Below, one piece after another: positions 18,720 through 41,813 of a DNA stretch of 64,000 bases. The position numbers were made by a program, and so were the translations under genes. The notes beneath the pieces are model-generated. The model saw only the letters and a program-made list of their open reading frames with translations, was not told where the DNA came from and searched no databases. The DNA is from Chloroflexota bacterium (GTDB taxonomy: Bacteria > Chloroflexota > Dehalococcoidia > UBA2247 > JAXHVC01): positions 281-64,280 of the forward strand of contig JAXHVC010000224.1 in the NCBI GenBank assembly GCA_034189315.1, in the 5' to 3' direction. The number at the start of each line of letters is the position of its first letter. The first letter of the stretch is position 1.

Positions 18720-20078
18720 ATGATCATGGGGACAGAAAAAGTATCCCAGTATATCACTAATACCACTTACGATAAAATCCCCCCAGATGCGTTAGCTAGT
18801 GCAAAGCAAGCAATACTAGACTGCCTCGGAGTTACATTAGCAGGGTGCGATGATCCTGGTAGTAAGATCGTCACTGAATTCGCAAAAGAACAAGGTGGCA
18901 TAGCTGAAGCAGGTGTCATAGGGGGTGGTTTCAAAGTCCCAGCAGTAGAGGCTGCATGGGTAAACGGAACAATCGCCCATGCACTGGATTATGACGACTA
19001 TTCCACAGCATTCATGGCACACCCTACTGTCGCACTTCTCCCTGCAGCACTGGCTGTATCAGAGAAATCCCATCTATCAGGAAAAGACGTATTGCTTGCA
19101 TATATCGTGGGATTCGAAGTGGGGGCTGCTGTAGCACCCATTTGTGTTATGCAAAGCTATCTGCTGGGATGGCATTCGACTTCGGTAATGGGAACAATCG
19201 GTGCCGTCGCATCTTGTGCAAAACTGCTGAACCTTAGCGTTGAACAGACAAGCATGGCACTAGGAATTGCTTCATCCATGGCCAATGGTATGAAGGAAAA
19301 CTTTGGGACAATGACCAAACCACTACATGCTGGTAATGCCGCACGTAATGGTGTATTGGCAGCACAGCTTTCACAAAAGGGATTCACTGCATCCGAGAAC
19401 ATACTAGAAGGGCAACAAGGATTTTGTAGAATATTCGCTGGTGGAGCGGAGATCGATGGAGCAAAGATTGGAGAGTCAATAGGTCAACAATACACTATCA
19501 TTGGTGGTCTATCTATGAAACCCTATCCATCTTGTGCAGGTACGCATGCTACTATAGATAGTGCCGTTTATCTTCATGGACAACGAGAGATTAGAGCTGA
19601 GGATATCGAAGAGATCGAGATGAGGACAAGCCCAGGTGTGGCCACCGCATGCATTCACTCCAATCCTCAGACTGGATTGGAAGGTAAGTTCAGCAATCAG
19701 TATTGTGTGGCAAGGGGGCTTCTGGACGGAGAAGTTGGGCTCAGACATTTCACCGATGATATGGTGAAAGACCCCGTAATACAATCCCTAGTCCAAAAGG
19801 CAAAATATGCACATACCCCAGAGATGGGAGCATCCTTCGGTTCAGAAGTGGTTGTGAAATTCCGTGACGGTTCTACGGTATCCTATAAAGTCGATAGCCC
19901 AAAAGGTTTTATTACTAATCCAGTAACCATCGACGACACTATTGTCAAGTATAAGGATTGTGCTTCGTTAGCCCTTTCGAGTGATGACGCACAACGTTCT
20001 TTAGACCTTATCATGAACCTAGAGGACCTAGCAGACATAGGCACCTTGATGGATATTCTTGCTAAAAAGGCTAAGTAG
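18720..20078 (+). CDS. MmgE/PrpD-family protein (2-methylcitrate dehydratase-like)
   Basis: 452-aa ORF. The N-terminus ...YDKIPPDALASAKQAILDCLGVTLAG matches the PrpD fold. Confidence 0.85.
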   Translation: MIMGTEKVSQYITNTTYDKIPPDALASAKQAILDCLGVTLAGCDDPGSKIVTEFAKEQGGIAEAGVIGGGFKVPAVEAAWVNGTIAHALDYDDYSTAFMAHPTVALLPAALAVSEKSHLSGKDVLLAYIVGFEVGAAVAPICVMQSYLLGWHSTSVMGTIGAVASCAKLLNLSVEQTSMALGIASSMANGMKENFGTMTKPLHAGNAARNGVLAAQLSQKGFTASENILEGQQGFCRIFAGGAEIDGAKIGESIGQQYTIIGGLSMKPYPSCAGTHATIDSAVYLHGQREIRAEDIEEIEMRTSPGVATACIHSNPQTGLEGKFSNQYCVARGLLDGEVGLRHFTDDMVKDPVIQSLVQKAKYAHTPEMGASFGSEVVVKFRDGSTVSYKVDSPKGFITNPVTIDDTIVKYKDCASLALSSDDAQRSLDLIMNLEDLADIGTLMDILAKKAK

Positions 20079-20151
20079 CCTGCCACCTAGACCTAATGGC
20101 CAGGCTGACGTTCAGAGTATCTAGCAACGCTTGATGGAGGGGAGATAGAAA

Positions 20152-21747
20152 ATGGATGAAATAATGGAACAGAGAATCGCGGAGCTTAGGCGAGTCAAAG
20201 AAAGTGCCCTTCAGGGTGGTGGGCCAGCAAAAATCGCACGTCAAAAAGAACGCGGTAAGCTTCTTGCTCGTGAAAGACTTGAGATGCTTCTAGACCCAGG
20301 AAGCTTCAATGAATCGCTAATGCTCACAGGGCACATCCAGGGAGACGCAGGTGATGGCATTGTAGCTGGGTATGGGACAATTAATGGCAGACAGGTCTGC
20401 GTCTTTTCTCAGGATGCGACGATCCAGGGAGGATCAATTGGTAACCTCCATGGCTTTAAAATGACCAGAACCATTGAGAGAGCGTTAGAAATGAGAGTCC
20501 CTCTCATTTCACTAGGTGATTCACCTGGCTATCGAAATCCCAAAATGTCTCAACTACTTAGCAGTCAAGGGGCCGGGGGAATGGATGTCGGTGAAGAAAT
20601 GACTATGGCTACAGCTATAGGCGAAAAGAACATGTTCTTTGCCAACGTTCAAGCATCTGGCGTGATACCTCAAATCTCAGCTGTTCTCGGTAGTTGTGGT
20701 GGAGTATCTGTATACTCACCAGCACTCATGGATTTTATATTCATGGTAGATAGTATTAGCCATATGTTTATCACGGGACCTCGGATTGTTAAATCTGTAA
20801 TGGCAGAAGACCTCACTATGGAAGAGCTCGGTGGAACAAAGATACATTCCAAGCTCTCAGGTGTTTGTGATCGCAGGTTTAAAACCGAAGAAGAATGCTT
20901 CGCGAACATAAAGAAACTCTTGTCCTACCTCCCATCCAATTGTGATGAATCTCCTCCATGGGTTAACACAGGTGATGATCCCAATAGGGTTGACGAAACG
21001 ATCCAAGACATCATGCCTGCCGACGCTAACAAACCCTTTGATATGCACCTCATAATTAAACGTATAGTAGATAATGGCGATTTCTATGAAATCAAGCCAG
21101 AGTTTGCAGGGGAGATGATAGTAGGTTTGGGCAGGCTAAATGGCCATGTCGTCGGAATCATTGCAAACCAACCTATGGTACGAGCAGGCAGCTTGACAGT
21201 AGATAGTTCGACCAAAGAAGCTCGGTTTATGAGGTTCTGTGATTGCTTCAACATCCCACTTGTGATGTTGGTTGATACTCCAGCCTACCAACCCGGATCT
21301 CAGCAAGAACAAGCAGGAATTATTCGACATGGAGCAAAGGTGCTCTATGCCCTCTGCGAAGCCACCGTTCCCAGAATCAGCGTAATATTACGCAAAGCCT
21401 ATGGAGGAGGCAACTTAGGAATGGGCTCTATACCAGGCATGGGAACCGACTTCATGTATTCATGGCCAACAGCGGAGATGGGCGTTATGGGAGCAGAACA
21501 AAGCGTAGACCTGTTCTTTGGCCCACAAATTGCCGCAGCACCAGATCCCGTTGCATTCAAACAGCAAATGGTAGATATGTATAAAGGCGTGATGGGTAAT
21601 CCCATATTTATGGCATCCTTCAACCCCTTCACCGAGGATGTTATCGAGCCTAAGGACACCAGAAGGATCTTGATAAGATCATTAGAGATCCTAAAGTCAA
21701 AAAAGATCTCTCGCCAACCCAAACGCCATGGCAATATACCCCTATAA
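20152..21747 (+). CDS. Acyl-CoA carboxyltransferase subunit (propionyl-CoA carboxylase beta / methylmalonyl-CoA decarboxylase alpha family)
   Basis: 531-aa ORF with two carboxyltransferase crotonase-like halves (ERLEMLLDPGSF...; ...ANQPMVRAGSL...AKVLYA). Confidence 0.85.
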   Translation: MDEIMEQRIAELRRVKESALQGGGPAKIARQKERGKLLARERLEMLLDPGSFNESLMLTGHIQGDAGDGIVAGYGTINGRQVCVFSQDATIQGGSIGNLHGFKMTRTIERALEMRVPLISLGDSPGYRNPKMSQLLSSQGAGGMDVGEEMTMATAIGEKNMFFANVQASGVIPQISAVLGSCGGVSVYSPALMDFIFMVDSISHMFITGPRIVKSVMAEDLTMEELGGTKIHSKLSGVCDRRFKTEEECFANIKKLLSYLPSNCDESPPWVNTGDDPNRVDETIQDIMPADANKPFDMHLIIKRIVDNGDFYEIKPEFAGEMIVGLGRLNGHVVGIIANQPMVRAGSLTVDSSTKEARFMRFCDCFNIPLVMLVDTPAYQPGSQQEQAGIIRHGAKVLYALCEATVPRISVILRKAYGGGNLGMGSIPGMGTDFMYSWPTAEMGVMGAEQSVDLFFGPQIAAAPDPVAFKQQMVDMYKGVMGNPIFMASFNPFTEDVIEPKDTRRILIRSLEILKSKKISRQPKRHGNIPL

Positions 21748-21805
21748 TTGGTGGACATCCTAGGAGCAATTTCCATCTAGTGACTTTGGCTGAAAGAAGA
21801 GAGCT

Positions 21806-22615
21806 TTGACTATGGATTTTGAGACTTTGTTCCTTAAGAAGGAAAATCATATTGCGACAATTACGTTGAATCGTCCTGCAAGACGGAATGCTCTTAATCT
21901 CCAGATGATCCAAGATGTTGTGGCAGCCTTAGATGATGTTCAGGCAGACGACAGCCTGAGAGTTCTAATAATAACCGGAGCGGGGAAAGGATTCTGCTCC
22001 GGTGCAGACATAGATCCTGCATCTATGGGTAGCGGGACCCCAGGACAAATGAACATTGAGACAATGCGTAGATCACCTATGATTCAATCTATGCATAAAC
22101 TCATTCTTGGTTTATACAAAGTGAAGATACCTACTATAGCCATGGTGAACGGATCCTGTGTTGGAGCTGGTTTCGAGATTGCACTCTTATGCGATATGAG
22201 GGTGGGATCAGAACATTCCAAGTTCATGTGTGGATTCGTCAAATTAGGGTTATATCCATTCTCAGGCACATGGTTATACCCTAGAGTCATGGGGCTAGCC
22301 AAAGCATACGAAATACTCTATACAGGTGATACTCTTGATTCCCAAGAGGCTTTCCGGATTGGTGTTCTTAACAAACTAGTCCCTGCCGATAGGTTAGAAG
22401 AAGAGACTATGACTCTTGCCAATAAGATAGCTAAAGGTCCACCTATAGTTATCCGGTTTATGAAGTCTCAAATACGACAGGCCGTTACCATGGACCTTGA
22501 GACAACCCTAGATGTAGCAGCTACCTATGAAGGGGTTATTTCCACTACAAGCGATCTTATAGAAGGCATCAGCGCACGCTTCGAAAATAGGGAACCGCAT
22601 TTCCAGGATATGTAG
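21806..22615 (+). CDS. Enoyl-CoA hydratase/isomerase (crotonase) family protein
   Basis: 269-aa ORF with ATITLNRPARRNAL and ITGAGKGFCSGADI (oxyanion-hole region). Confidence 0.85.
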   Translation: MTMDFETLFLKKENHIATITLNRPARRNALNLQMIQDVVAALDDVQADDSLRVLIITGAGKGFCSGADIDPASMGSGTPGQMNIETMRRSPMIQSMHKLILGLYKVKIPTIAMVNGSCVGAGFEIALLCDMRVGSEHSKFMCGFVKLGLYPFSGTWLYPRVMGLAKAYEILYTGDTLDSQEAFRIGVLNKLVPADRLEEETMTLANKIAKGPPIVIRFMKSQIRQAVTMDLETTLDVAATYEGVISTTSDLIEGISARFENREPHFQDM

Positions 22616-23410: not shown

Positions 23411-24370
23411 CTAGCCTCCCACAGTAACTTCTGCGGCATAGGGTTCAAATATCCCAAGTAGTTCAAGTAGCCGTTCCTCGTTATAACCTTCTCCTGCAGG
23501 GAATGGATAGTCTATACCAAACAACCTGTACTTAGCTCCAGCCCAAGGATGATATGGTAATAAATCAACACCTTGTATACTTTCGCCCAATGATTGCACA
23601 AATTGTGCTGTTGCAAGCAGGTTTTCATTAGTATCATTGATACCCGTAATGATCGGCACACGTATCCTGATCTTCTTCTTTCTCTCCGCCACTTTCTTAA
23701 GATTGTCCAGAATCAACTCATTACCTACCCCTGACCAATCTTTATGAGCAGCTGAATCCATATGCTTAATATCCCATAGGAAAAAGTCAATATAATCGAT
23801 CATTTTTTCCAAGGTTTCCCAAGGAGCATAACCACTAGTGTCTAAACAAGTATTGATTTCCCTTGCTTGGGCCGCTTGCAGCAAGCTCAACGTGAAATCT
23901 GGCTGAGCTAACGGATCTCCACCAGAAAGTGTCATCCCCCCACCAGAGTTCTTATAGAAAGGCTTATCCTTTTCTACCTCAGTAATTACTTCCCCCACCG
24001 TTACATATCTACCGTAAACCACCAGAGCCCTATAACGGCAAAAATCCGTACACTGTAAACAATACGTACAACGCCCCTTGTCCACACTTGGCTTGGTTGG
24101 TTCAGGTAGAGTAATCGCACCGGACGGACACTTTTCTATACAATCTCCACAACCAATGCAATTTGGATGGTATGGAAATACCTCTGGATTACGCCTAACA
24201 CCTTCCGGATTGTGACACCACCGGCAGTTCAGTACACATCCCTTGAGAAATACATTTGTTCGAATCCCAGGACCATCACAAAGAGAATAGAACTGTATAT
24301 TGGTTATTATCCCTATTTTGTTGTCTAGTTCATCAATTCTCGATGCCACGAGGATGCACCTCCATAGCAA
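23411..24370 (-). CDS. Glycyl-radical-enzyme-activase-like radical SAM protein (PFL-AE family with two [4Fe-4S] ferredoxin inserts)
   Basis: CDGPGIRTNVFLKGCVLNCRWCHNPEG (GPG.R plus CxxxCxxC), then CIGCGDCIEKCP and CTYCLQCTDFC ferredoxin motifs. 319 aa. The N-terminal 18 aa may not be translated. Confidence 0.8.
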   Translation of the reverse strand: MLWRCILVASRIDELDNKIGIITNIQFYSLCDGPGIRTNVFLKGCVLNCRWCHNPEGVRRNPEVFPYHPNCIGCGDCIEKCPSGAITLPEPTKPSVDKGRCTYCLQCTDFCRYRALVVYGRYVTVGEVITEVEKDKPFYKNSGGGMTLSGGDPLAQPDFTLSLLQAAQAREINTCLDTSGYAPWETLEKMIDYIDFFLWDIKHMDSAAHKDWSGVGNELILDNLKKVAERKKKIRIRVPIITGINDTNENLLATAQFVQSLGESIQGVDLLPYHPWAGAKYRLFGIDYPFPAGEGYNEERLLELLGIFEPYAAEVTVGG

Positions 24371-24513
24371 TCACCATAACTCCAATAGTCATGATAATAC
24401 AAACAACTCAGTCAAATGACAATAGAACTAGCCTTTGTAATAAAGTGTATCGGATATTACAAACCTAAAATCAGCCTAACGACTTTTATAAGGAGTTGAA
24501 TTCGTGAGGGTAT

Positions 24514-25458
24514 TTAGCCGCCTATAGTAGTCTCAATGCCATAAGATTGGAGGATTTCTACCACCGGGCCAACATCTTCTTTGGCCATACTCTTGATATC
24601 AGCATACTGCCAATCCAAACCCAACTGTTCATACTTGGATGCACAGTAATTATGGAACGGCAACACATCAACCGCCTCAACACTGGAACCCAACTCTTGG
24701 GCAAACTCCCCTAGGGCTTCAATATTTTCATCCGAATCATTAAACCCTGGAACAAGTGGCAATCGTAATCGCAATGTTGCGCCCTTAGCCGCAAGCCTTC
24801 TGGCATTTTCTAGTACTAGATCATTCGGCACGCCAGTTGCCTGGCGATGCATTTCAGAGTTCATGTGTTTGATGTCATAGAGGAATAGATCAACGTATTC
24901 CGAAAGTTTTTCAAGGTCTTCCCACTTACAATAACCACAGGTATCAACACATGTGTTAATACCATACTGTCTCACGCCCTTTAGTATCTCGATAACATCA
25001 TCTAGCCGTGTCGTAGGCTCCCCTCCTGATATCGTCACACCACCACCGGAATTAATATAGAAACTAAAGTCCTTTGCTGCTTCCTTTACTAATTCCTCCA
25101 CACTCCAAGGCTGACTTGCAGGAACAAGAGCATCATAAATACAAGCATCAACACACTTCATACACCGAGTGCAACGATCTCTATCAATCTTCTGATAATT
25201 ACTGCCCTCTTGTTGTGACTCTTCCGGGGGTATGGGTGCATATACCGCTTGCTCATCGCAAACCTCATAACAACGCCCACACTGAACGCACTTCATCCTC
25301 TTATAATATATTTCTTGGTAGGAATGAATACACTCTGGGTTATGACACCACCAACACCTTAGGGGACAACCCTTGATGAATACCGTAGTCCGTATTCCAG
25401 GGCCATCCTGAATCGACCACCCTTGAACATTGGTAATTAACATCGAGTGTTCGGACAT
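24514..25458 (-). CDS. Second glycyl-radical-enzyme-activase-like radical SAM protein (paralog)
   Basis: QDGPGIRTTVFIKGCPLRCWWCHNPEC, then CVQCGRCYEVCD and CTRCMKCVDACIYDA. 314 aa. Confidence 0.8.
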   Translation of the reverse strand: MSEHSMLITNVQGWSIQDGPGIRTTVFIKGCPLRCWWCHNPECIHSYQEIYYKRMKCVQCGRCYEVCDEQAVYAPIPPEESQQEGSNYQKIDRDRCTRCMKCVDACIYDALVPASQPWSVEELVKEAAKDFSFYINSGGGVTISGGEPTTRLDDVIEILKGVRQYGINTCVDTCGYCKWEDLEKLSEYVDLFLYDIKHMNSEMHRQATGVPNDLVLENARRLAAKGATLRLRLPLVPGFNDSDENIEALGEFAQELGSSVEAVDVLPFHNYCASKYEQLGLDWQYADIKSMAKEDVGPVVEILQSYGIETTIGG

Positions 25459-36166: not shown

Positions 36167-37816
36167 ATGGCAGGTGAACAGAAGCTTACCTCCGACACTA
36201 CAAAAGACCTATACGGAAGCTACTCTGAATACTGGCGCAGAAACAAATCAGCCCTTGAGCCATTGGAATTAGCTAATGCATTGAAGGCCTTGCGAAAAGT
36301 CGTGGGGTACGTTGGAGCCAACTGTAAGACGGTGGAATGGGCTGGTATGTCCGAACCAGGGGAAGGCAAGATTCTGATCGACGTCAGTCCTTCCGAAGGC
36401 AAGGTTCCTATTCCAGGGGACAGGATGGATGTCATGGTGGGACAAGCCATCCACGAGGCTCTACATTGCCGTGAATGGAGCGATTGGATTTGGTTAGATG
36501 TCGAGAGTAAGAAGAAAGAACTTTTTCCCAGATACAAGAGTTATCTAAAACTATTAGTAGACGCAGGGGAAGATGTTTATGTTGACCACATAGCTAAGGA
36601 TAATGTACTGGGGAACTATGTCACTGTCACCAGAGCATGGTACAAACCCAAAGGGTCCTTAGATAACTCCTCCTATCCAAATACAGATGGATTGATTCGC
36701 CTATGGAGAAGAATCGCTCTATACAAAGAAGCACCGGAAGAGTATCTTCCTGAATATGAAGAGCCATTGAAAATCCTGATCGATGCAGGGAACCAACTCA
36801 TCGAAGGCGGTCAAGGTATCAGCTCCGTAGCCGAACGTGCAAGTTGTAGGAGTGAGGTATACGTTAGCACATGGGATAAGATCAGCCCATTTCTAACATT
36901 ATGGGATCGGCAGGAAACCGAAAGAATTATGGCCACTCGCAAGGCGAAGAGAGCCGAGCGCTCATTAGTGTACGAAGGTTACACCGAAGATAGTCTATCA
37001 CCCCAGCTTGCACAAGAGGTGGCAGAGATTCTAGCTGCCACTGGGGAAGATATGACCCCTTTGCTGGAAAGCGAGTTGACCAAACCGGAGGACAAAGCCC
37101 TAAGAACCATATTCAAAGATGCAACCATACCATATACACCAAATCTAGACTATACTCTAGTAGCACGGCTGCGGCGTATTTTCCAGGCCCAATGGGAAAG
37201 GACAGTACGCACCGATCGAGGACTAATCAGCGGTAGAGTTGATGGAAGAAGGCTCTACCGAGTAAGTACCACTGGAAGGGTGTTCCGCAATAAAGCCCAC
37301 CCCTTGGTGAACGTTTGGAGTATAACAGTTCTTCTTGACGCATCCATATCAATGGGGATGGCAGGAACAGACTGGCTACATGCGCAGAATACCTGCGCCG
37401 CACTTTGGAAGGCTCTTCAAGGTTATAGAAACAAACTCGATATATTGGCCTATCACGAAGACCACGATGTGTGCCGTGTATCCAAGCTATTCCACCATAG
37501 GCAGTTTTTTACAGTGACCCCTTGCGGTAGAACACCATCAGGACAGGCAGTAATGATTGCCGCAATGAGAATGTCCGAGGCAAAAAGGAAGCTATTGATT
37601 CATATAACCGATGGTGAGTGTAACTGTGGGAGTAGTGTACAGGAAGCATTAAATTACTGCCAAAGGAACTCTATTGAACTTGTGACACTAGGATTCGGCC
37701 TCGACAAGGAACTCGTCAAGGAACAATATGGAGAAAGCAGTCAATTGGTTGACTCAATAAAACAAGTACCTGAAGCACTAGAAATCGTTCTAAAGAAAAA
37801 GCTGTTGAGGGAGTGA
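36167..37816 (+). CDS. vWA-domain protein with an N-terminal HExxH (zincin-like) region, paralog 1
   Basis: C-terminal vWA with a MIDAS motif (LLDASISMG...ITDGECN). N-region has AIHEALH and a downstream AGEDVYVD. The same motifs are conserved in the 38906-40606 paralog. Confidence 0.7.
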   Translation: MAGEQKLTSDTTKDLYGSYSEYWRRNKSALEPLELANALKALRKVVGYVGANCKTVEWAGMSEPGEGKILIDVSPSEGKVPIPGDRMDVMVGQAIHEALHCREWSDWIWLDVESKKKELFPRYKSYLKLLVDAGEDVYVDHIAKDNVLGNYVTVTRAWYKPKGSLDNSSYPNTDGLIRLWRRIALYKEAPEEYLPEYEEPLKILIDAGNQLIEGGQGISSVAERASCRSEVYVSTWDKISPFLTLWDRQETERIMATRKAKRAERSLVYEGYTEDSLSPQLAQEVAEILAATGEDMTPLLESELTKPEDKALRTIFKDATIPYTPNLDYTLVARLRRIFQAQWERTVRTDRGLISGRVDGRRLYRVSTTGRVFRNKAHPLVNVWSITVLLDASISMGMAGTDWLHAQNTCAALWKALQGYRNKLDILAYHEDHDVCRVSKLFHHRQFFTVTPCGRTPSGQAVMIAAMRMSEAKRKLLIHITDGECNCGSSVQEALNYCQRNSIELVTLGFGLDKELVKEQYGESSQLVDSIKQVPEALEIVLKKKLLRE

Positions 37817-37827
37817 GGTAAATAAGC

Positions 37828-38673
37828 ATGATAAAGCACAGCAAAGAGATACAAGTTCCGCAGGCAGATCCCTATTTCTTCCTGCCTGAGGAGATCATTG
37901 GGGTGCTTGATAAACTAGAGAAGCTCTCAAAAAAACACCCTGTTAATATTCTGGTTACCGGCAAACAAGGCTGTGGGAAGTCCTCTCTCGTAAGACAGTT
38001 TTCCGCGCGGTACGAACATCCAATGTCCTCCTTCCAAATCGGATTATTATCCGAGCCAGGGCAGCTATTTGGAGAACAGAGGTTAAAAGAAGGAGAGACC
38101 TATTATCAACAATTCCTATTTCCTCAAGCCATCTCTACTCCTGGCTGTGTTCTGCACCTTGAGGAATTGAACCGTCCAGAACATCCAAAAGCGCTCAACG
38201 AGCTGTTCTCTGTATTATCCGAAGATAGATGTATCTGGGTGGATGAACTTGGGCTAGTATCTGTAGCAGAAAGAGTGCTTTTCTTTGCCACTCTGAATGA
38301 GGGAGAGGAATTCACTGGGATTGATCAGCTTGACGCCGCATTAAGAGACAGATTCTATGTTATTCAGATGGATTACCTTCCTTGGGATGTAGAACAGCAA
38401 GTGCTAATGCTCAAAACAGGCGTTGAGGAGGAGCAAGCAGTCAATATCCTAAGGGTGATAAACAAACTAAGAAGCAATACACAGGTTCCAATTGCAGTCT
38501 CAACAAGACATAGCCTAATGATTGCGGAATTGGTAGTCTTAGGAGCCTCTATTCGAGAAGCAATTATTTTCAGCCTGCAGCTAGATAAGGATATGCTCGA
38601 ATCACTCCTTCTATCCCTCCATCTGGAAACAGGAGATACTAGGGTCGCTAAGAGCGCTTATCGCATTTTCTAG
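37828..38673 (+). CDS. MoxR/CbbQ-class AAA+ ATPase
   Basis: Walker A ILVTGKQGCGKSSL, a Walker B-like VLHLEELNR and an arginine-finger region RDRFYV. 281 aa. Confidence 0.75.
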   Translation: MIKHSKEIQVPQADPYFFLPEEIIGVLDKLEKLSKKHPVNILVTGKQGCGKSSLVRQFSARYEHPMSSFQIGLLSEPGQLFGEQRLKEGETYYQQFLFPQAISTPGCVLHLEELNRPEHPKALNELFSVLSEDRCIWVDELGLVSVAERVLFFATLNEGEEFTGIDQLDAALRDRFYVIQMDYLPWDVEQQVLMLKTGVEEEQAVNILRVINKLRSNTQVPIAVSTRHSLMIAELVVLGASIREAIIFSLQLDKDMLESLLLSLHLETGDTRVAKSAYRIF

Positions 38674-38905
38674 TCTTGTTCCTACGTTCAATCATCATAT
38701 AGGCCTGCCAGAATAGTCATCTGCCAGGGAGAGGGGGATGGTCACACTGTAAGATCTAACGCTCGGTCCCTGGCAGTTGTTGTTTTTTCAAATCTCTTCT
38801 GTACCGAATACAATCATATGAGTACTGTTATCATTGTTGTGCTCATTAGATAAAGCCAACTTCTCGACCGTTTCCCCCTACGCATTCTACAGGAAAAAAG
38901 GAGCC

Positions 38906-40606
38906 ATGAATTATTCAGAATACTGGAGAGTCAACAAGTCATGCGTTGACCACACAGAACTAGCCAATGCCCTAAGAAGTCTTCGTAAAGTCGTAGGTGA
39001 GGTTGGTGTAGATGCCGATGCTGTATGGTCAGGGGTTCCTATTGACGATAACCCAAGAATCGAATTGCCATTGCTTCTAGCAATGGGGGACTACCCTATA
39101 CCACCAGAAAGGATGGATGTTCTAACGGGAACTGCTATTCATGAAGCACTACATATTAGAGAGAATACACAAAGGGCAGTTGGCTACCTTTCTCAGCTGT
39201 TCCCACGGATGAAGGATAAAACTCCTCTAATGAGGCTGGCACAAGCAGGGGAAGATGTACATGTGAATGGTGTGGCTCTCCAGACAGGACTACTCGGGTG
39301 TTATGTACAAAAGTCAAGACAATGGTGGAGAGATAATCTTAGCTGGGACTTCACAGCAGGACGTCCTAATCTAGAAGGATTACTAGGGATATGGACAGAC
39401 ATTGTATTGGATGTTGTATTCTCGATCATTCCCGCAAATGAATTGCCAGGAATCAAGGACATATTTGCAGAGAGAGAACCAGGAGACCTGCAGTCTACGT
39501 TAGACATTCTCTGTTTATATAACTCAACTGCTCTATTCACTATCTATGGTATCCTCTTACGCATGCCACAAAGTTACGAAGAACCCTTGGAGCACCTTTT
39601 GCTCAACACACCTCAAATTATAGATTCGGATGCAGAAATACGGGCCATATTCTATATGGAGTTCTGGAACAGATGGGAAAAGACCTTCAATGATTGGCAA
39701 TTGGCCATAGAACAGGCAGGACTATCCGAATCCAGCAGCATGTTATCCTCAAGTTCACTTATGGATGATGAGCAAGTACCTCCCGAGATAACAGCCGCGG
39801 TTGCAGCGGCACTCACGGGAGAATCCAAAACCATCACCAGACAGATCGAAGCAACACTGAAAGCGTTAGGAGGTGAACATCAGCGATACAGGCTATTTCC
39901 AACCCTATTCGAGGATGCCACTATGGCATGCAAGGCTGTGCCTCATCAGAGGTTGGTTCGGCGATTAAGCGAGGTGTTTCATCTGCAACAAGAACAGGCA
40001 GCTAGGATCAATCGAGGTCTTCGCAGCGGCAAGTTGGATAAAAGAAGGATGTATAGGGTTCATACGAACGGCCTTATATTTAAGAAGAAAGAGTACTTCC
40101 CGGAGAACAACCGATGGGATATTACTTTGCTTATCGATGCTTCTAGTTCAGTGATATGGCATTGGCAGTTGATCGAAAGCGTTTATGTGGCGATGGCAGA
40201 AGCACTGAAAAGAAACAATAGCAGGTTGGAGATATTGGCATATAAGGAAGCTGCTGGCAACTGTCTAGTGAGTCGTCTCTTCTACGGTAACAGTCTCTTC
40301 ACTACAACAACCGGTGGCAGTACACCCTCCGGCGAAGCTATTATGGCAGCAGCATTGTCCATGCCTCGCAGTCAGAGGCGATTCGTTGTTCATGTGACTG
40401 ATGGTCTTTGGAATTCTGGTATTGATGTATGGTATGCAATAGAGCACTGTAAGAGAGAAGGTATTGATTTAGTTACACTTGGTTGTGGCGATGCCATTAG
40501 AGCTTTGGAATTGCAGTATGGAAAGAGCTTCGAAGTTATCGAATACATTGAGCAACTCCCCAAAGCTATGGAAGATCTATTCCGTAAGAAAATGTTGGGT
40601 CGATAG
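38906..40606 (+). CDS. vWA-domain protein with an N-terminal HExxH (zincin-like) region, paralog 2
   Basis: Aligns with paralog 1 (YSEYWRVNKS...ELANALRSLRKVVG; TAIHEALH; AGEDVHVN; RRMYRV; LLIDASSSV...VTDGLWN). The start is set at the Met aligning with paralog 1; the six-frame ORF begins at 38834. Confidence 0.68.
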   Translation: MNYSEYWRVNKSCVDHTELANALRSLRKVVGEVGVDADAVWSGVPIDDNPRIELPLLLAMGDYPIPPERMDVLTGTAIHEALHIRENTQRAVGYLSQLFPRMKDKTPLMRLAQAGEDVHVNGVALQTGLLGCYVQKSRQWWRDNLSWDFTAGRPNLEGLLGIWTDIVLDVVFSIIPANELPGIKDIFAEREPGDLQSTLDILCLYNSTALFTIYGILLRMPQSYEEPLEHLLLNTPQIIDSDAEIRAIFYMEFWNRWEKTFNDWQLAIEQAGLSESSSMLSSSSLMDDEQVPPEITAAVAAALTGESKTITRQIEATLKALGGEHQRYRLFPTLFEDATMACKAVPHQRLVRRLSEVFHLQQEQAARINRGLRSGKLDKRRMYRVHTNGLIFKKKEYFPENNRWDITLLIDASSSVIWHWQLIESVYVAMAEALKRNNSRLEILAYKEAAGNCLVSRLFYGNSLFTTTTGGSTPSGEAIMAAALSMPRSQRRFVVHVTDGLWNSGIDVWYAIEHCKREGIDLVTLGCGDAIRALELQYGKSFEVIEYIEQLPKAMEDLFRKKMLGR

Positions 40607-40738: not shown

Positions 40739-41014
40739 GTGTCAGTTACGGTCCATATTTCAGCGCCTCTTCGGCGATTTACATCGGGTGAATCAGAGGT
40801 AGAAATGACAGCCAACAATGTATTGGATTGTATTGATGAGCTAGAAGCTCGATTCCCTGGAATAAGAGGGAATATCTTAAATGAACATAGCCAACGCCAT
40901 AAGTTCGTGAATATATATTTAAATGGTGACGATGTCCGTTCACTCCAGGGTCTTTCTACAACCATTCGTCCTGGTGATGAAATCAGTATTGTGCCTGCTA
41001 TTGCTGGAGGTTAG
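40739..41014 (+). CDS. MoaD/ThiS/CysO-family ubiquitin-like sulfur-carrier protein (C-terminal Gly-Gly)
   Basis: 91-aa ORF ending ...GDEISIVPAIAGG*. GTG start after a GAGGGGG Shine-Dalgarno. Confidence 0.7.
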   Translation: MSVTVHISAPLRRFTSGESEVEMTANNVLDCIDELEARFPGIRGNILNEHSQRHKFVNIYLNGDDVRSLQGLSTTIRPGDEISIVPAIAGG

Positions 41015-41089
41015 TGCTATCGTAATAGATCTGCTCTGCATGATTATTGAGTCTAAATTTACTATATTTATGCAAAGGAGGTGGACAAC

Positions 41090-41626
41090 ATGATCATTGA
41101 TGACCCTCAATCATTCTTTATCTACGTTTTCCACCCAGACTCCCTGTCCGATTCCGGTGCTTATATCGCCTATCAAGGTAATAGGTTAACAAACAAAGAG
41201 TACATGGAACACTGGGGCAAATGGATTGTTATGGATGAACGTGAGAATCTTGATGCCCTAGCAAAAAAGCTCAATCCATATGTAGAAAGTAGACACATCC
41301 CTTGTATTAAATACGATCGTTATCCACCACCCATGTTCGAATTGGGAGTTTGTGTCATGAGTGTCTTCTGCGATGACAGGGCTCGTGATGAGGTTTGGGA
41401 GATCCTATCCCAGCATGGAGTCAAAATGCAGGTATGGATATACGATAAGTTTACTATAGAAATGTGGCAACCTGGCGGCGCTCTTCTTGAGACTTGGATA
41501 TCCTCTCATGATCTTGATGAACATCAAGCAGAAGAAATCAGATCAGATGTTCAAATGAGGATGAATCAGACATACGGTTCTGAGGATGACACATGCACTG
41601 GATGGACGCAGTGTTATCTTCCTTAG
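41090..41626 (+). CDS. Hypothetical protein (178 aa) downstream of the ThiS-like gene
   Basis: ORF with an AAAGGAGGTG Shine-Dalgarno 6 nt before the second ATG. No recognisable motif (FHPDSLSDSGAYIAYQGN...). Confidence 0.5.
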   Translation: MIIDDPQSFFIYVFHPDSLSDSGAYIAYQGNRLTNKEYMEHWGKWIVMDERENLDALAKKLNPYVESRHIPCIKYDRYPPPMFELGVCVMSVFCDDRARDEVWEILSQHGVKMQVWIYDKFTIEMWQPGGALLETWISSHDLDEHQAEEIRSDVQMRMNQTYGSEDDTCTGWTQCYLP

Positions 41627-41783: not shown

Positions 41784-41813
41784 AAGGGTTCCGAGTAAGA
41801 TCTCGGAACCCTT
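41784..41813. terminator. Perfect 12-bp stem hairpin (aagggttccgag-taagat-ctcggaaccctt) downstream of rpsI
   Basis: In minus orientation it is followed by an AU-rich tract. It lies in a convergent intergenic region. Confidence 0.5.

Follow-up and report, generated by a model that had tools for sequence, protein, structure and literature searches.

Anaerobic hydrocarbon degradation is initiated by benzyl- and alkylsuccinate synthases, oxygen-sensitive glycyl-radical enzymes whose assembly and activation outside the native hosts, to our knowledge, is still difficult. Two conserved genes of their clusters, bssE and bssF, encode AAA+ and vWA proteins (PMC7285207) whose roles are described as uncertain or unknown (PMC7285207, PMC5874301). 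The bssE gene is reported to be essential for toluene degradation, and disruption of bssF abolishes growth on toluene (PMC5874301). In Azoarcus sp. CIB, bssG and bssI are separated by two more genes, orfX and orfY, published with neither an assigned function nor a family name; a single RT-PCR amplicon covering bssG-orfX-orfY-bssI was obtained from toluene- or m-xylene-grown cells (PMC5874301).

The locus described here, taken together with its relatives in other genomes, shares three features with the sulfur-carrier trios MoaD-MoaE-MoeB, ThiS-ThiG-ThiF and CysO-CysM-MoeZ: the carrier is a beta-grasp protein ending with small residues, the adenylating E1 is of the MoeB type, and the carrier gene is always adjoined by the gene of a dedicated partner. 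It differs from them in the partner, which is neither MoaE, ThiG nor a PLP enzyme, in having no rhodanese or JAMM gene among the recurrent neighbours, and in being embedded in an AAA+/vWA remodelling cassette. Among the MoxR-vWA pairs NorQ-NorD, CbbQ-CbbO and CoxD-CoxE, we know of none that uses a ThiS-like protein. The SAMP/UbaA and Urm1/Uba4 systems, which need no E2 or E3 and in which conjugation is linked to sulfur transfer (PMC9574740), are similar in that the carrier falls just under the SAMP1 model and the E1s match the UbaA model; the scores below equivalog cut-offs and the lack of a JAMM desampylase among the recurrent neighbours set the present system apart. A precedent for a small dedicated helper releasing thiocarboxylate sulfur for insertion into a protein is offered by ThiS, TfuA and YcaO: the ThiS thiocarboxylate and the TfuA hydrolase supply sulfide for protein thioamidation (PMC13063428, citing Liu et al. 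2021).

The cassette and its surroundings

The window, that is, the whole stretch of 64,000 nucleotides of a Chloroflexota genome that was analysed, carries on its forward strand a vWA-MoxR-vWA cassette. The first gene (36167..37816) was recognised from its ORF and by clustering as encoding a BssF-like protein of 549 aa, vWA protein 1, with a helical N-domain and a C-terminal vWA domain. An HEALH motif is found in the N-domain (nt 36452-36466) and the MIDAS motif reads DASIS (nt 37337-37351). The match of this protein to Pfam VWA is sub-threshold (18.6 bits), and it clusters with BssF of Aromatoleum and with 55 other loci. The next gene (37828..38673) encodes a BssE-like MoxR AAA+ ATPase of 281 aa, with Walker A GKQGCGKS, which matches Pfam AAA_5 (1.4e-16) and CbbQ_C (22.8 bits, cut-off 20.6) and is 57 to 70% identical to the MoxR genes of bss/ass-type loci. 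It is followed by a second BssF-like gene (38906..40606; 566 aa by NCBI's start, the ORF opening at 38834), in which HEALH is found at nt 39140-39154 and the MIDAS motif DASSS at nt 40136-40150. Both vWA proteins are 28 to 43% identical to their counterparts in loci with a glycyl-radical enzyme or activase. The BssE/BssF architecture, MoxR (AAA_5 + CbbQ_C) followed by a protein of about 570 aa with a C-terminal vWA/MIDAS domain, is present in the window. We conclude that the whole cassette is a BssE/BssF-type accessory set of fumarate-adding glycyl-radical enzyme clusters, an identity that an earlier sequence-only reading of this DNA had missed.

Downstream of the vWA protein 2 stop (40606), a spacer of 132 nt leads to a ThiS-like carrier gene, and its stop (41014) is followed after 75 nt by the ATG of the gene that we call X178; the ORFs lie where the sequence-only reading had placed them, with the spacings it had given (about 130 and 75 nt). 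Between X178 and the convergent rpsI, a perfect 12-bp hairpin (41784..41813; fold dG -21.8 kcal/mol, z -5.1) may act as a two-way terminator closing the cassette; it was not called by a consensus terminator scan. A promoter scan performed no better than on shuffles. In a sister genome (L088), the genes follow one another in exactly this arrangement, ogt - vWA - MoxR - vWA - ThiS - X178 - rpsI, with about 88% conservation of coding DNA and about 60 to 65% of spacers, and its alignment to the cassette spacers revealed ordinary intergenic divergence only, with no sign of a conserved regulatory element. The cassette sits between ogt/dnaE and a ribosomal-protein operon. A foreign origin was rejected on the basis of its uniform GC (0.41-0.49).

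The only glycyl-radical component in the window is a tandem of two activating enzymes of 319 and 314 aa (23411..25458, reverse strand), 15 to 17 kb upstream of the carrier gene. They score 340 and 347 bits against NCBIfam TIGR02494 (cut-off 174) and 255 and 288 bits against the BssD model, below its cut-off of 496, and are 39 to 54% identical to the activases that flank X178 in other genomes. This Chloroflexota bacterium, which probably stems from a biofilm on tar or hydrocarbons, is likely to be a user of glycyl-radical chemistry. A tblastn search of the 64-kb window detected no ThiF, glycyl-radical enzyme, DUF4125 or radical-SAM/SPASM protein, none of its ORFs contained RVxG[YFW], and no GrcA-like ORF is present. 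JAMM, MoaE, ThiG and CysM were not seen on reading the translations of the window's ORFs, and no known acceptor enzyme (MoaE, ThiG, CysM/PALP) was found beside the carrier. The absence of an adjacent E1-like, JAMM, MoaE, ThiG or CysM partner, pointed out earlier, holds for the window as a whole (by tblastn for ThiF, by reading of the ORF translations for the others). Compared with a bss operon, the window has two vWA genes, no DUF4125 and no bssDCAB, and belongs to another phylum.

The carrier and its 178-residue partner

The carrier gene (40739..41014, forward strand) starts at a GTG preceded by a ribosome-binding site, GAGGGGG. Its 91-aa translation ends with EISIVPAIAGG, directly followed by a TAG stop, which leaves a free C-terminal Gly-Gly. 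It exceeds the cut-offs of Pfam ThiS PF02597 (E = 5.2e-17; 62.6 bits, cut-off 22.5) and of NCBIfam TIGR01687, 'MoaD family protein' (55.1 bits, cut-off 49.5). Against the SAMP1 model NF041918 it scores 57.3 bits, just under the equivalog cut-off of 60; the carriers of related loci score 36 to 48 bits. The nearest non-syntenic relatives, at 52 to 58% identity, are sulfur carriers of the CysO/SAMP1/MoaD type in PALP/ThiF/NIL contexts. At the level of sequence, the gene is shown to encode an archaeal-MoaD/SAMP1/CysO-type beta-grasp protein, and the earlier assignment to the MoaD/ThiS Gly-Gly proteins is borne out. In a neighbour-joining tree of these 90-aa proteins, too weak for further reading, the X178-linked carriers were diverse and paraphyletic, with CysO-like proteins nested inside, which lends no support to their monophyly.

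X178 (41090..41626, forward strand), characterised by alignment, AlphaFold (AF2) modelling and synteny, is a 178-aa protein of an unnamed family with the motifs HWGKW, IKYDR, CDDR and WxPGG. The mechanical ORF opens at GTG 41081; the true start is ATG 41090, on the basis that MI[IV].. opens all homologues and that NCBI's own call is of 178 aa. A Shine-Dalgarno-like AAAGGAGGTG (41074..41083, forward strand), read from the sequence and kept in the sister genome, ends at 41083, with 6 nt between it and this ATG. No family match was found for X178 in Pfam or NCBIfam, and a profile of its family matched none of the PDB sequences. Database relatives number 22, at 40 to 100% identity, and 83 loci were confirmed by tblastn; relatives occur in at least 80 species-level genomes, mostly of anaerobic hydrocarbon degraders. 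About 20 residues are invariant among 60 aligned sequences. None of these is a cysteine, C94 being present in 59 of the 60 and C88 in 54. These relatives and invariant residues, the mean pLDDT of the AF2 model (92.7) and the gene order of the sister genome confirm that X178 is a real conserved protein, more than a chance ORF, in agreement with its first description as conserved-looking.

The predicted fold of X178 matches the alpha/beta fold of BLES03 (C11orf68, PF08939), eIF4E and the phosphothreonine lyases (SpvC, OspF, LanL lyase domains). Pfam gave no match of X178 to BLES03/UPF0696 PF08939, sub-threshold matches being limited to two distant relatives (19.3 and 14.9 bits, cut-off 23.1). 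Neither the fold matches nor the PDB sequence profile revealed similarity to MoaE, ThiG, PLP enzymes or TtuA. On this model, X178 is predicted to take a BLES03/eIF4E/phosphothreonine-lyase-like fold; as the first protein of its unnamed family to be described, it ties an uncharacterised family of about 80 species-level occurrences to the little-understood BLES03 fold. The predicted fold is not that of an E2 (UBC), JAB/MPN or MoaE protein; the E2-like or JAB-like identity that had been suggested for the 178-aa protein is not supported.

Linkage across genomes

In 52 of 69 loci, X178 has a ThiS gene no more than 500 nt away; in six further Aromatoleum loci, a divergent ThiS beside X178 was missed by BLAST and seen directly. 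When loci with complete flanks were considered, a BssE-type MoxR or BssF-type vWA gene was found within 9 kb of X178 in 26 of 27, and a glycyl-radical enzyme or activase in 21 of 27. A MoeB/UbaA-type E1 (ThiF) is present within 5 kb in 16 of 39 loci. Pfam matches bore out the identification of the glycyl-radical enzymes, ThiF and DUF4125. The carrier had been called 'stand-alone', which does not fit a gene with a constant partner, X178, and with its own adjoining E1 in about 40% of related loci; these E1s match the MoeB and UbaA models best. Of 14 loci in which the carrier ends with AAG, AGA or AAA, 13 include a ThiF of their own, compared to 15 of 43 for carriers ending with GG (Fisher P = 1.6e-4). 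A GG carrier lacking a local E1, as in the window, is therefore the common state. Glycyl-radical enzymes were absent from the flanks of the Chloroflexota-type loci L005, L006, L010 and L024. No E2, JAMM/MPN or DUB family recurs in X178 neighbourhoods, nor does a rhodanese or cysteine desulfurase that could act as sulfur donor, and no YcaO or TfuA gene was seen in X178 loci.

X178 is also found in natural fusions, with a BssF-like vWA protein (P0034, 754 aa) and with DUF4125, the BssG-like protein (L084, P0028). In the fusion locus L092, the order is a small Gly_radical protein (RVAGYS), a 64-aa ORF, X178::vWA and MoxR. The sequence-only reading had proposed a functional tie to the upstream vWA-MoxR-vWA system, and had named loss of this linkage among relatives as a possible refutation; the linkage turned out to be conserved across phyla, and the fusions to BssF-type vWA and DUF4125 point the same way. 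Its other proposal, an orphan cofactor-biosynthesis carrier, is unlikely because of this synteny. As judged from gene neighbourhoods, ThiS and X178 are a pair that recurs across bacterial phyla beside the MoxR/vWA helper genes of glycyl-radical enzymes. The same comparisons show the pair as an apparently optional add-on to the BssE/BssF machinery accompanying benzyl- and alkylsuccinate synthases, and it points to a putative, so far undescribed, accessory step in the making or repair of glycyl-radical enzymes. The ThiS-like carrier, the MoeB/UbaA-type E1 and X178 are thereby placed in the same accessory set as bssE/bssF, and testable hypotheses are gained for what the MoxR-vWA pair acts on.

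Aromatoleum toluclasticum MF63 (L059) and A. toluvorans (L047) share the arrangement BssA ... BssE(MoxR) - BssF(vWA) - DUF4125 - ThiS-like - X178. The ThiS-like protein has 93 aa and ends with IPAIAGG, and the X178 homologue shows 45 to 47% identity. As in the CIB report, exactly two genes, here ThiS-like and X178, are found between bssG and the next bss genes. From gene order, the CIB sequence itself not being part of the comparison, the pair is most probably orfX-orfY. In Aromatoleum aromaticum EbN1, bssH occupies the place between bssG and bssI where CIB has orfX-orfY (PMC5874301); should EbN1 lack a further copy, benzylsuccinate synthase would not need the pair in that strain.

Proposed function and competing explanations

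The best overall explanation, to which we give a probability of about 0.45, is that the pair is a BssE/BssF add-on in which E1, carrier, X178 and MoxR-vWA would deliver to a client. We infer that the carrier, once activated by an E1, is probably passed on by X178 to the vWA-MoxR remodeller. The E1, which in this genome would act in trans, would adenylate the carrier C-terminus, most likely leading to a thiocarboxylate. The activated tail may then be bound in an X178 pocket formed by the invariant Lys44, Lys74, Tyr75, Arg77, Arg97, Arg151 and five Trp, and by the nearly invariant Cys94. X178 would be docked on the vWA protein, to which it is fused in some genomes, while MoxR-vWA would hold or remodel a protein client, mostly a glycyl-radical enzyme complex with Fe-S subunits. 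In maturation or repair, the client would receive either sulfur from the carrier or the whole carrier; for this Chloroflexota bacterium, the client would be encoded outside the window. We lean towards a sulfur carrier because the nearest non-syntenic relatives are CysO/MoaD-type carriers beside PLP enzymes and ThiF, and because the E1s match MoeB/UbaA models and no E2, JAMM or DUB recurs. Against this explanation, the fold relatives of X178 are ligand binders or lyases, not sulfurtransferases. The missing E1, glycyl-radical enzyme and GrcA-like ORF of the window, the flanks of the Chloroflexota-type loci, the EbN1 operon, the lack of a recurring sulfur donor and the lack of a strictly invariant cysteine count against it too. 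We know of no ThiS thiocarboxylate that serves glycyl-radical enzymes or Fe-S assembly. A literature search for bss/ass or glycyl-radical enzymes with ThiS, ThiF or MoaD returned nothing relevant.

A bolder version, which we consider decidedly unlikely, is that X178 would be a new enzyme of the BLES03/phosphothreonine-lyase fold that, with the ThiS thiocarboxylate, installs or restores a sulfur-containing residue in the glycyl-radical enzyme complex while MoxR-vWA holds the client open. Candidate chemistries would be cysteine persulfidation or protection, conversion of Ser/pSer through dehydroalanine to Cys, and backbone thio-modification, with a radical-SAM/SPASM enzyme contributing in some genomes. 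If true, it would represent a ubiquitin-like, AAA+-coupled repair or maturation pathway for oxygen-sensitive radical enzymes; we know of no thio-modification in glycyl-radical enzymes.

The carrier might serve instead as a ubiquitin-like handle. Free, or conjugated to lysine by the E1 without E2/E3 as are SAMPs and Urm1, it would be gripped by the vWA MIDAS, and the MoxR ring would pull and remodel or extract a subunit, such as a glycyl-radical domain cleaved by oxygen, with X178 being a receptor or specificity factor. The cassette may add a bacterial example to the AAA+/MIDAS machines that work with ubiquitin-like proteins: in the AAA+ protein Rea1, the MIDAS domain holds the UBL domains of Rsa4 and Ytm1 and displaces them when ATP is hydrolysed (PMC6624252), with the difference that the UBL of the Rea1/Midasin system belongs to the substrate as one of its domains and is not a free protein activated by an E1. 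The near-threshold SAMP1 score and the X178::vWA fusions, one of them adjoined by a GrcA-like spare glycyl-radical protein, are consistent with a handle, as is the thiocarboxylate of Urm1, which needs no E2/E3 for conjugation and which, under oxidative stress, persulfidates cysteines of its targets (PMC9574740). A peptidase could be provided by the HExxH that both window vWA proteins carry in their N-domain, but this motif is limited to 17 of 59 BssF-family members. Since, in addition, no deconjugating enzyme recurs in X178 neighbourhoods and the nearest relatives of the carrier are sulfur carriers, we regard a handle as rather unlikely. A self-contained ThiS-X178-ThiF pathway, inserting sulfur into a thio-metabolite or cofactor as do MoaD-MoaE, ThiS-ThiG and CysO-CysM, is unlikely. 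X178 would then be a new acceptor enzyme and MoxR-vWA merely co-located, and the core does exist without MoxR, vWA or glycyl-radical enzyme (ThiS-X178-ThiF in L001, X178-ThiS-ThiF in L005, also L008, L036, L044 and L045). Carrier and partner are tightly adjacent, as in every classical carrier/acceptor pair, the carrier has relatives of the CysO type, and the many invariant charged and aromatic residues of X178 look like an active site. However, X178 occurs covalently fused with the vWA protein and with DUF4125, which speaks for a physical coupling and against mere co-location, all but one of the 27 fully flanked loci have MoxR or vWA nearby, and X178 shows no resemblance to MoaE, ThiG, PLP enzymes or TtuA.

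We consider it very unlikely that MoxR-vWA, the ubiquitin-like protein, E1 and X178 form an immunity-type conflict module on mobile islands that also carry hydrocarbon genes. The window MoxR weakly matches the bpMoxR model of MoxR-vWA ternary systems (24.9 bits, cut-off 27), the E1 partners match the E1 part of CBASS E1-E2 models, and distant relatives of the X178 core, of about 135 aa, are fused to TIR, Macro, Pol-beta nucleotidyltransferase and Cas4-like nuclease domains. These effector fusions are, however, confined to distant relatives outside the X178 clade, one of which has no ThiS nearby, and PADLOC models match neither X178, the carrier nor either vWA protein. The position of the cassette between ogt/dnaE and the ribosomal-protein operon, its uniform GC and its identical place in the sister genome also argue against such a module, as does the reported requirement for bssE and bssF in toluene degradation and growth (PMC5874301).

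The cassette and its carrier

As the sequence-only reading had noted, a 91-aa ORF whose translation ends in IVPAIAGG-stop (40739-41014, +) is followed by a 178-aa ORF (41090-41626, +); the observation is confirmed and the coordinates hold. The first product is a MoaD/ThiS-like protein (ThiS), designated the 'carrier', and the second, of an unnamed family, is designated 'X178'. Upstream of the carrier, on the same strand, lie a vWA protein of 549 aa (36167-37816, +), a MoxR-type ATPase of 281 aa (37828-38673, +; AAA_5 at 1.4e-16, CbbQ_C over its cut-off) and a second vWA protein (38906-40606, +). The mechanical ORF of X178 opens at a GTG (41081); its start was placed at the ATG at 41090 because all homologues begin MI[IV].. 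and the NCBI call is 178 aa long. The stretch AAAGGAGGTG (41074-41083) is found upstream of this ATG. The contig comes from a Chloroflexota MAG, and its GC content is even throughout the cassette region. X178 and rpsI converge, and the gap between them carries a perfect 12-bp hairpin (41784-41813; dG -21.8 kcal/mol, z -5.1), which parts the cassette from the rpsI-rplM...secY ribosomal operon and is likely a two-way terminator; a consensus terminator scan made no call at this hairpin.

Both vWA proteins keep the MIDAS motif DxSxS and carry HEALH in their helical N-domain (36452-36466 and 39140-39154). Of 59 proteins in the BssF-type family, 17 have the HExxH motif, whereas Aromatoleum BssF has a degenerate form of it (QEAYK). 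The N-domain may be a zincin-like peptidase domain active in some lineages only. In translations read by eye, the Walker-B position of the MoxR protein (37828-38673) and of its BssE relatives seems to be hhhLEE[LI]NR, with Glu-Glu rather than the usual Asp-Glu; a Walker-B regular expression had no match.

The carrier scored 62.6 bits against Pfam ThiS, 55.1 against the NCBIfam 'MoaD family protein' TIGR01687 (cut-off 49.5) and 57.3 against the SAMP1 model, slightly under the cut-off of 60. Among 2079 database relatives, one was 85% identical, and all others, at 58% or less, were annotated as MoaD, CysO or SAMP1-type carriers. The 85% relative belongs to a sister genome where gene order is identical (tig - dnaE - ogt - vWA - MoxR - vWA - ThiS - 178 aa - rpsI), and this stretch holds no E1 either. 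The next-closest relatives sit in classical sulfur-carrier contexts (PALP-NIL-ThiS; ThiF-PALP-ThiS-PALP-NIL). By its sequence, the carrier thus falls within the sulfur-carrier/SAMP radiation and is ordinary there.

Association with glycyl-radical accessory genes

When one genome was scanned for each species, 83 X178 relatives were obtained, and 80 loci were kept. These came mainly from anaerobic hydrocarbon degraders, including several toluene-degrading Aromatoleum species, Desulfosarcina widdelii and D. alkanivorans, Smithella, Desulfosporosinus Tol-M ('Contig_bssA'), Desulfobacula and tar-biofilm MAGs. All locus genes were clustered and the families confirmed with Pfam. The recurrent neighbours were ThiS (55 loci), BssF-type vWA (55), BssE-type MoxR (52), the E1 ThiF (36), glycyl-radical activase (32), glycyl-radical enzyme large subunit (24-29), the BssG-like DUF4125 (21) and an AhbD/NirJ-like radical-SAM/SPASM protein (12).

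Distances were counted only for loci with enough flank for the given distance. ThiS lay within 500 nt of X178 in 52 of 69 loci, a count that leaves out six Aromatoleum loci with a divergent ThiS missed by BLAST (seen directly in loci L047 and L059). ThiF lay within 5 kb in 16 of 39 loci, MoxR or vWA within 9 kb in 26 of 27, and an activase or glycyl-radical enzyme within 9 kb in 21 of 27. The usual order was activase - enzyme subunits - MoxR - vWA - ThiS - X178 (- ThiF); in Smithella it was ThiS - X178 - MoxR - vWA - rSAM/SPASM - ThiF. Contexts of database homologues included ThiS - X178 - ThiF (L001-3), ThiS - X178 - MoxR - MFS (L004), X178 - ThiS - ThiF (L005) and, for the nearest relatives at 69% identity (L006/7), MoxR - vWA - ThiF - ThiS - X178 followed by two radical-SAM/SPASM genes. 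The radical-SAM/SPASM enzyme, which scores under all equivalog cut-offs, lies within the module in 12 loci (e.g. L038:1542-6978; L039:9717-15210; L048:4779-10302; also L006:5067-7401). In a Dehalococcoidia MAG (L010:1370-3249), ThiS-ThiF is followed by three tandem X178 paralogues.

That X178 acts in physical contact with the vWA protein, and close to the glycyl-radical domain, is most strongly supported by fusions. X178 is fused to DUF4125 in L084 and protein P0028, and to a full BssF-like vWA protein in P0034. At the P0034 locus, a 105-aa stand-alone Gly_radical protein (RVAGYS; a 'spare part' resembling GrcA) precedes a 64-aa ORF, X178::vWA and MoxR (L092:4124-8144; same genes in L093). We conclude that the carrier and X178 form a conserved pair, frequently accompanied by an E1. 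This pair nearly always occurs with MoxR-vWA genes of the BssE/BssF type and, in most cases, also with fumarate-adding glycyl-radical enzymes. The tie to the upstream ATPase system suspected by the sequence-only reading is thus supported, while its view of the carrier as a stand-alone or orphan gene is not.

The genes bssE and bssF, whose AAA+ and vWA products are described as uncertain in function, are shared by every anaerobic toluene degrader (PMC7285207). An essential role is reported for bssE, and cells with a disrupted bssF no longer grow on toluene, although polar effects on bssG, orfXY and bssI may be the cause (PMC5874301). In strain MF63 (L059), as in A. toluvorans (L047), the DUF4125 gene is separated from the next bss genes by exactly two others; one encodes a ThiS-like protein of 93 aa with the C-terminus IPAIAGG, the other an X178 homologue. 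We therefore infer that orfX and orfY of Azoarcus sp. CIB are ThiS-like and X178, respectively. Against an essential role of the pair, strain EbN1 has bssH in the place taken by orfX-orfY in CIB (PMC5874301). Our literature search found no paper joining ThiS, ThiF or MoaD to bss/ass clusters, and as far as could be found, neither the X178 family nor a ThiS/E1 module coupled to the MoxR-vWA glycyl-radical accessory cassette has been described before.

The 64-kb window itself contains no glycyl-radical enzyme, GrcA-like or RVxG[YFW] ORF, ThiF, DUF4125 or SPASM enzyme, so that the reported lack of an E1 beside the carrier holds throughout; other Chloroflexota-type loci likewise have no glycyl-radical enzyme within their flanks. 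Two tandem glycyl-radical activases are present (23411-24370 and 24514-25458, -), over the TIGR02494 cut-off (340 and 347 bits) and under that of BssD. Beside them, PrpD/MmgE-like, carboxyltransferase and enoyl-CoA hydratase genes (18720-22615) belong to families that other genomes have in their alkyl- and benzylsuccinate loci; they may thus be part of a hydrocarbon or organic-acid pathway that has been dispersed or survives as a remnant.

Carrier tails and a possible sulfur relay

The E1s adjoining the pair are about 245 aa long, MoeB/UbaA-like, under all equivalog cut-offs and devoid of a rhodanese domain. Most X178-linked carriers end in GG, and some in AAG, AGA or AAA (ThiS of L005, L010, L012, L013, L024, L033, L036, L045, L074, L076-L078 and L085). 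ThiF was present in 13 of 14 loci with non-GG carriers, compared to 15 of 43 with GG (Fisher P = 1.6e-4, phylogeny ignored). This suggests that the tail is the feature recognised by the E1, and that housekeeping MoeB/ThiF can serve a GG carrier which, like that of the window, has no E1 of its own nearby.

In the mechanism we propose, the carrier would be activated by an E1 and probably thiocarboxylated, X178 would hold the activated tail while docked on the vWA protein, and the MoxR-vWA pair would offer a client protein, which would then receive either sulfur or a tag. To our knowledge, every known sulfur-carrier system has a dedicated neighbour beside the carrier. A sulfur relay is slightly preferred over use of the carrier as a Ubl-handle, because its relatives are sulfur carriers, no deconjugase recurs in the loci and it always has a dedicated neighbour. 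Each step has a precedent elsewhere: ThiS-COSH with the TfuA hydrolase in protein thioamidation (PMC13063428); Urm1-COSH, which needs no E2/E3 for conjugation and for the persulfidation of cysteines during oxidative stress (PMC9574740); and the Rea1 MIDAS, which grips UBL domains (PMC6624252).

The X178 family

X178 had no match in Pfam, NCBIfam or PADLOC, and its family profile found nothing among PDB sequences. A word-indexed search gave 22 relatives, and an exhaustive profile search 170 cluster representatives, 18 with E < 1e-30. In a comparison of 60 full-length sequences, I2, D4, W42, G43, K44, W45, I70, K74, R77, C94 (59/60), D95, R97, G110, W116, W126, P128, G129, E134, W136 and R151 proved invariant or nearly so. 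The AlphaFold model (pLDDT 92.7, pTM 0.87) gave weak yet mutually consistent matches to BLES03, eIF4E and phosphothreonine lyases, and the E2- or JAB-like fold raised by the sequence-only reading was rejected, as was a MoaE-like one. Pfam Bles03 matched two distant relatives below threshold. The link between these three folds, and a Lys/Lys/Tyr/Arg site in BLES03, had been proposed earlier in silico only (PMC4159009). Conserved Lys, Tyr, Arg and Trp of X178 fall on neighbouring strands in the secondary structure of the model, compatible with a predicted phosphate- or nucleotide-binding or lyase-type pocket.

Distant relatives of the core, about 135 aa (GKW...K...VYxDD...WxPGG; P0063, P0157, P0055, P0045, P0100; also L091:1461-1877), include one stand-alone protein with no ThiS nearby. 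Others are fused to Macro, TIR, Cas4-like PD-(D/E)XK and Pol-beta nucleotidyltransferase domains, which suggests that the core is part of a larger superfamily with ligand-sensing or catalytic roles in conflict systems.
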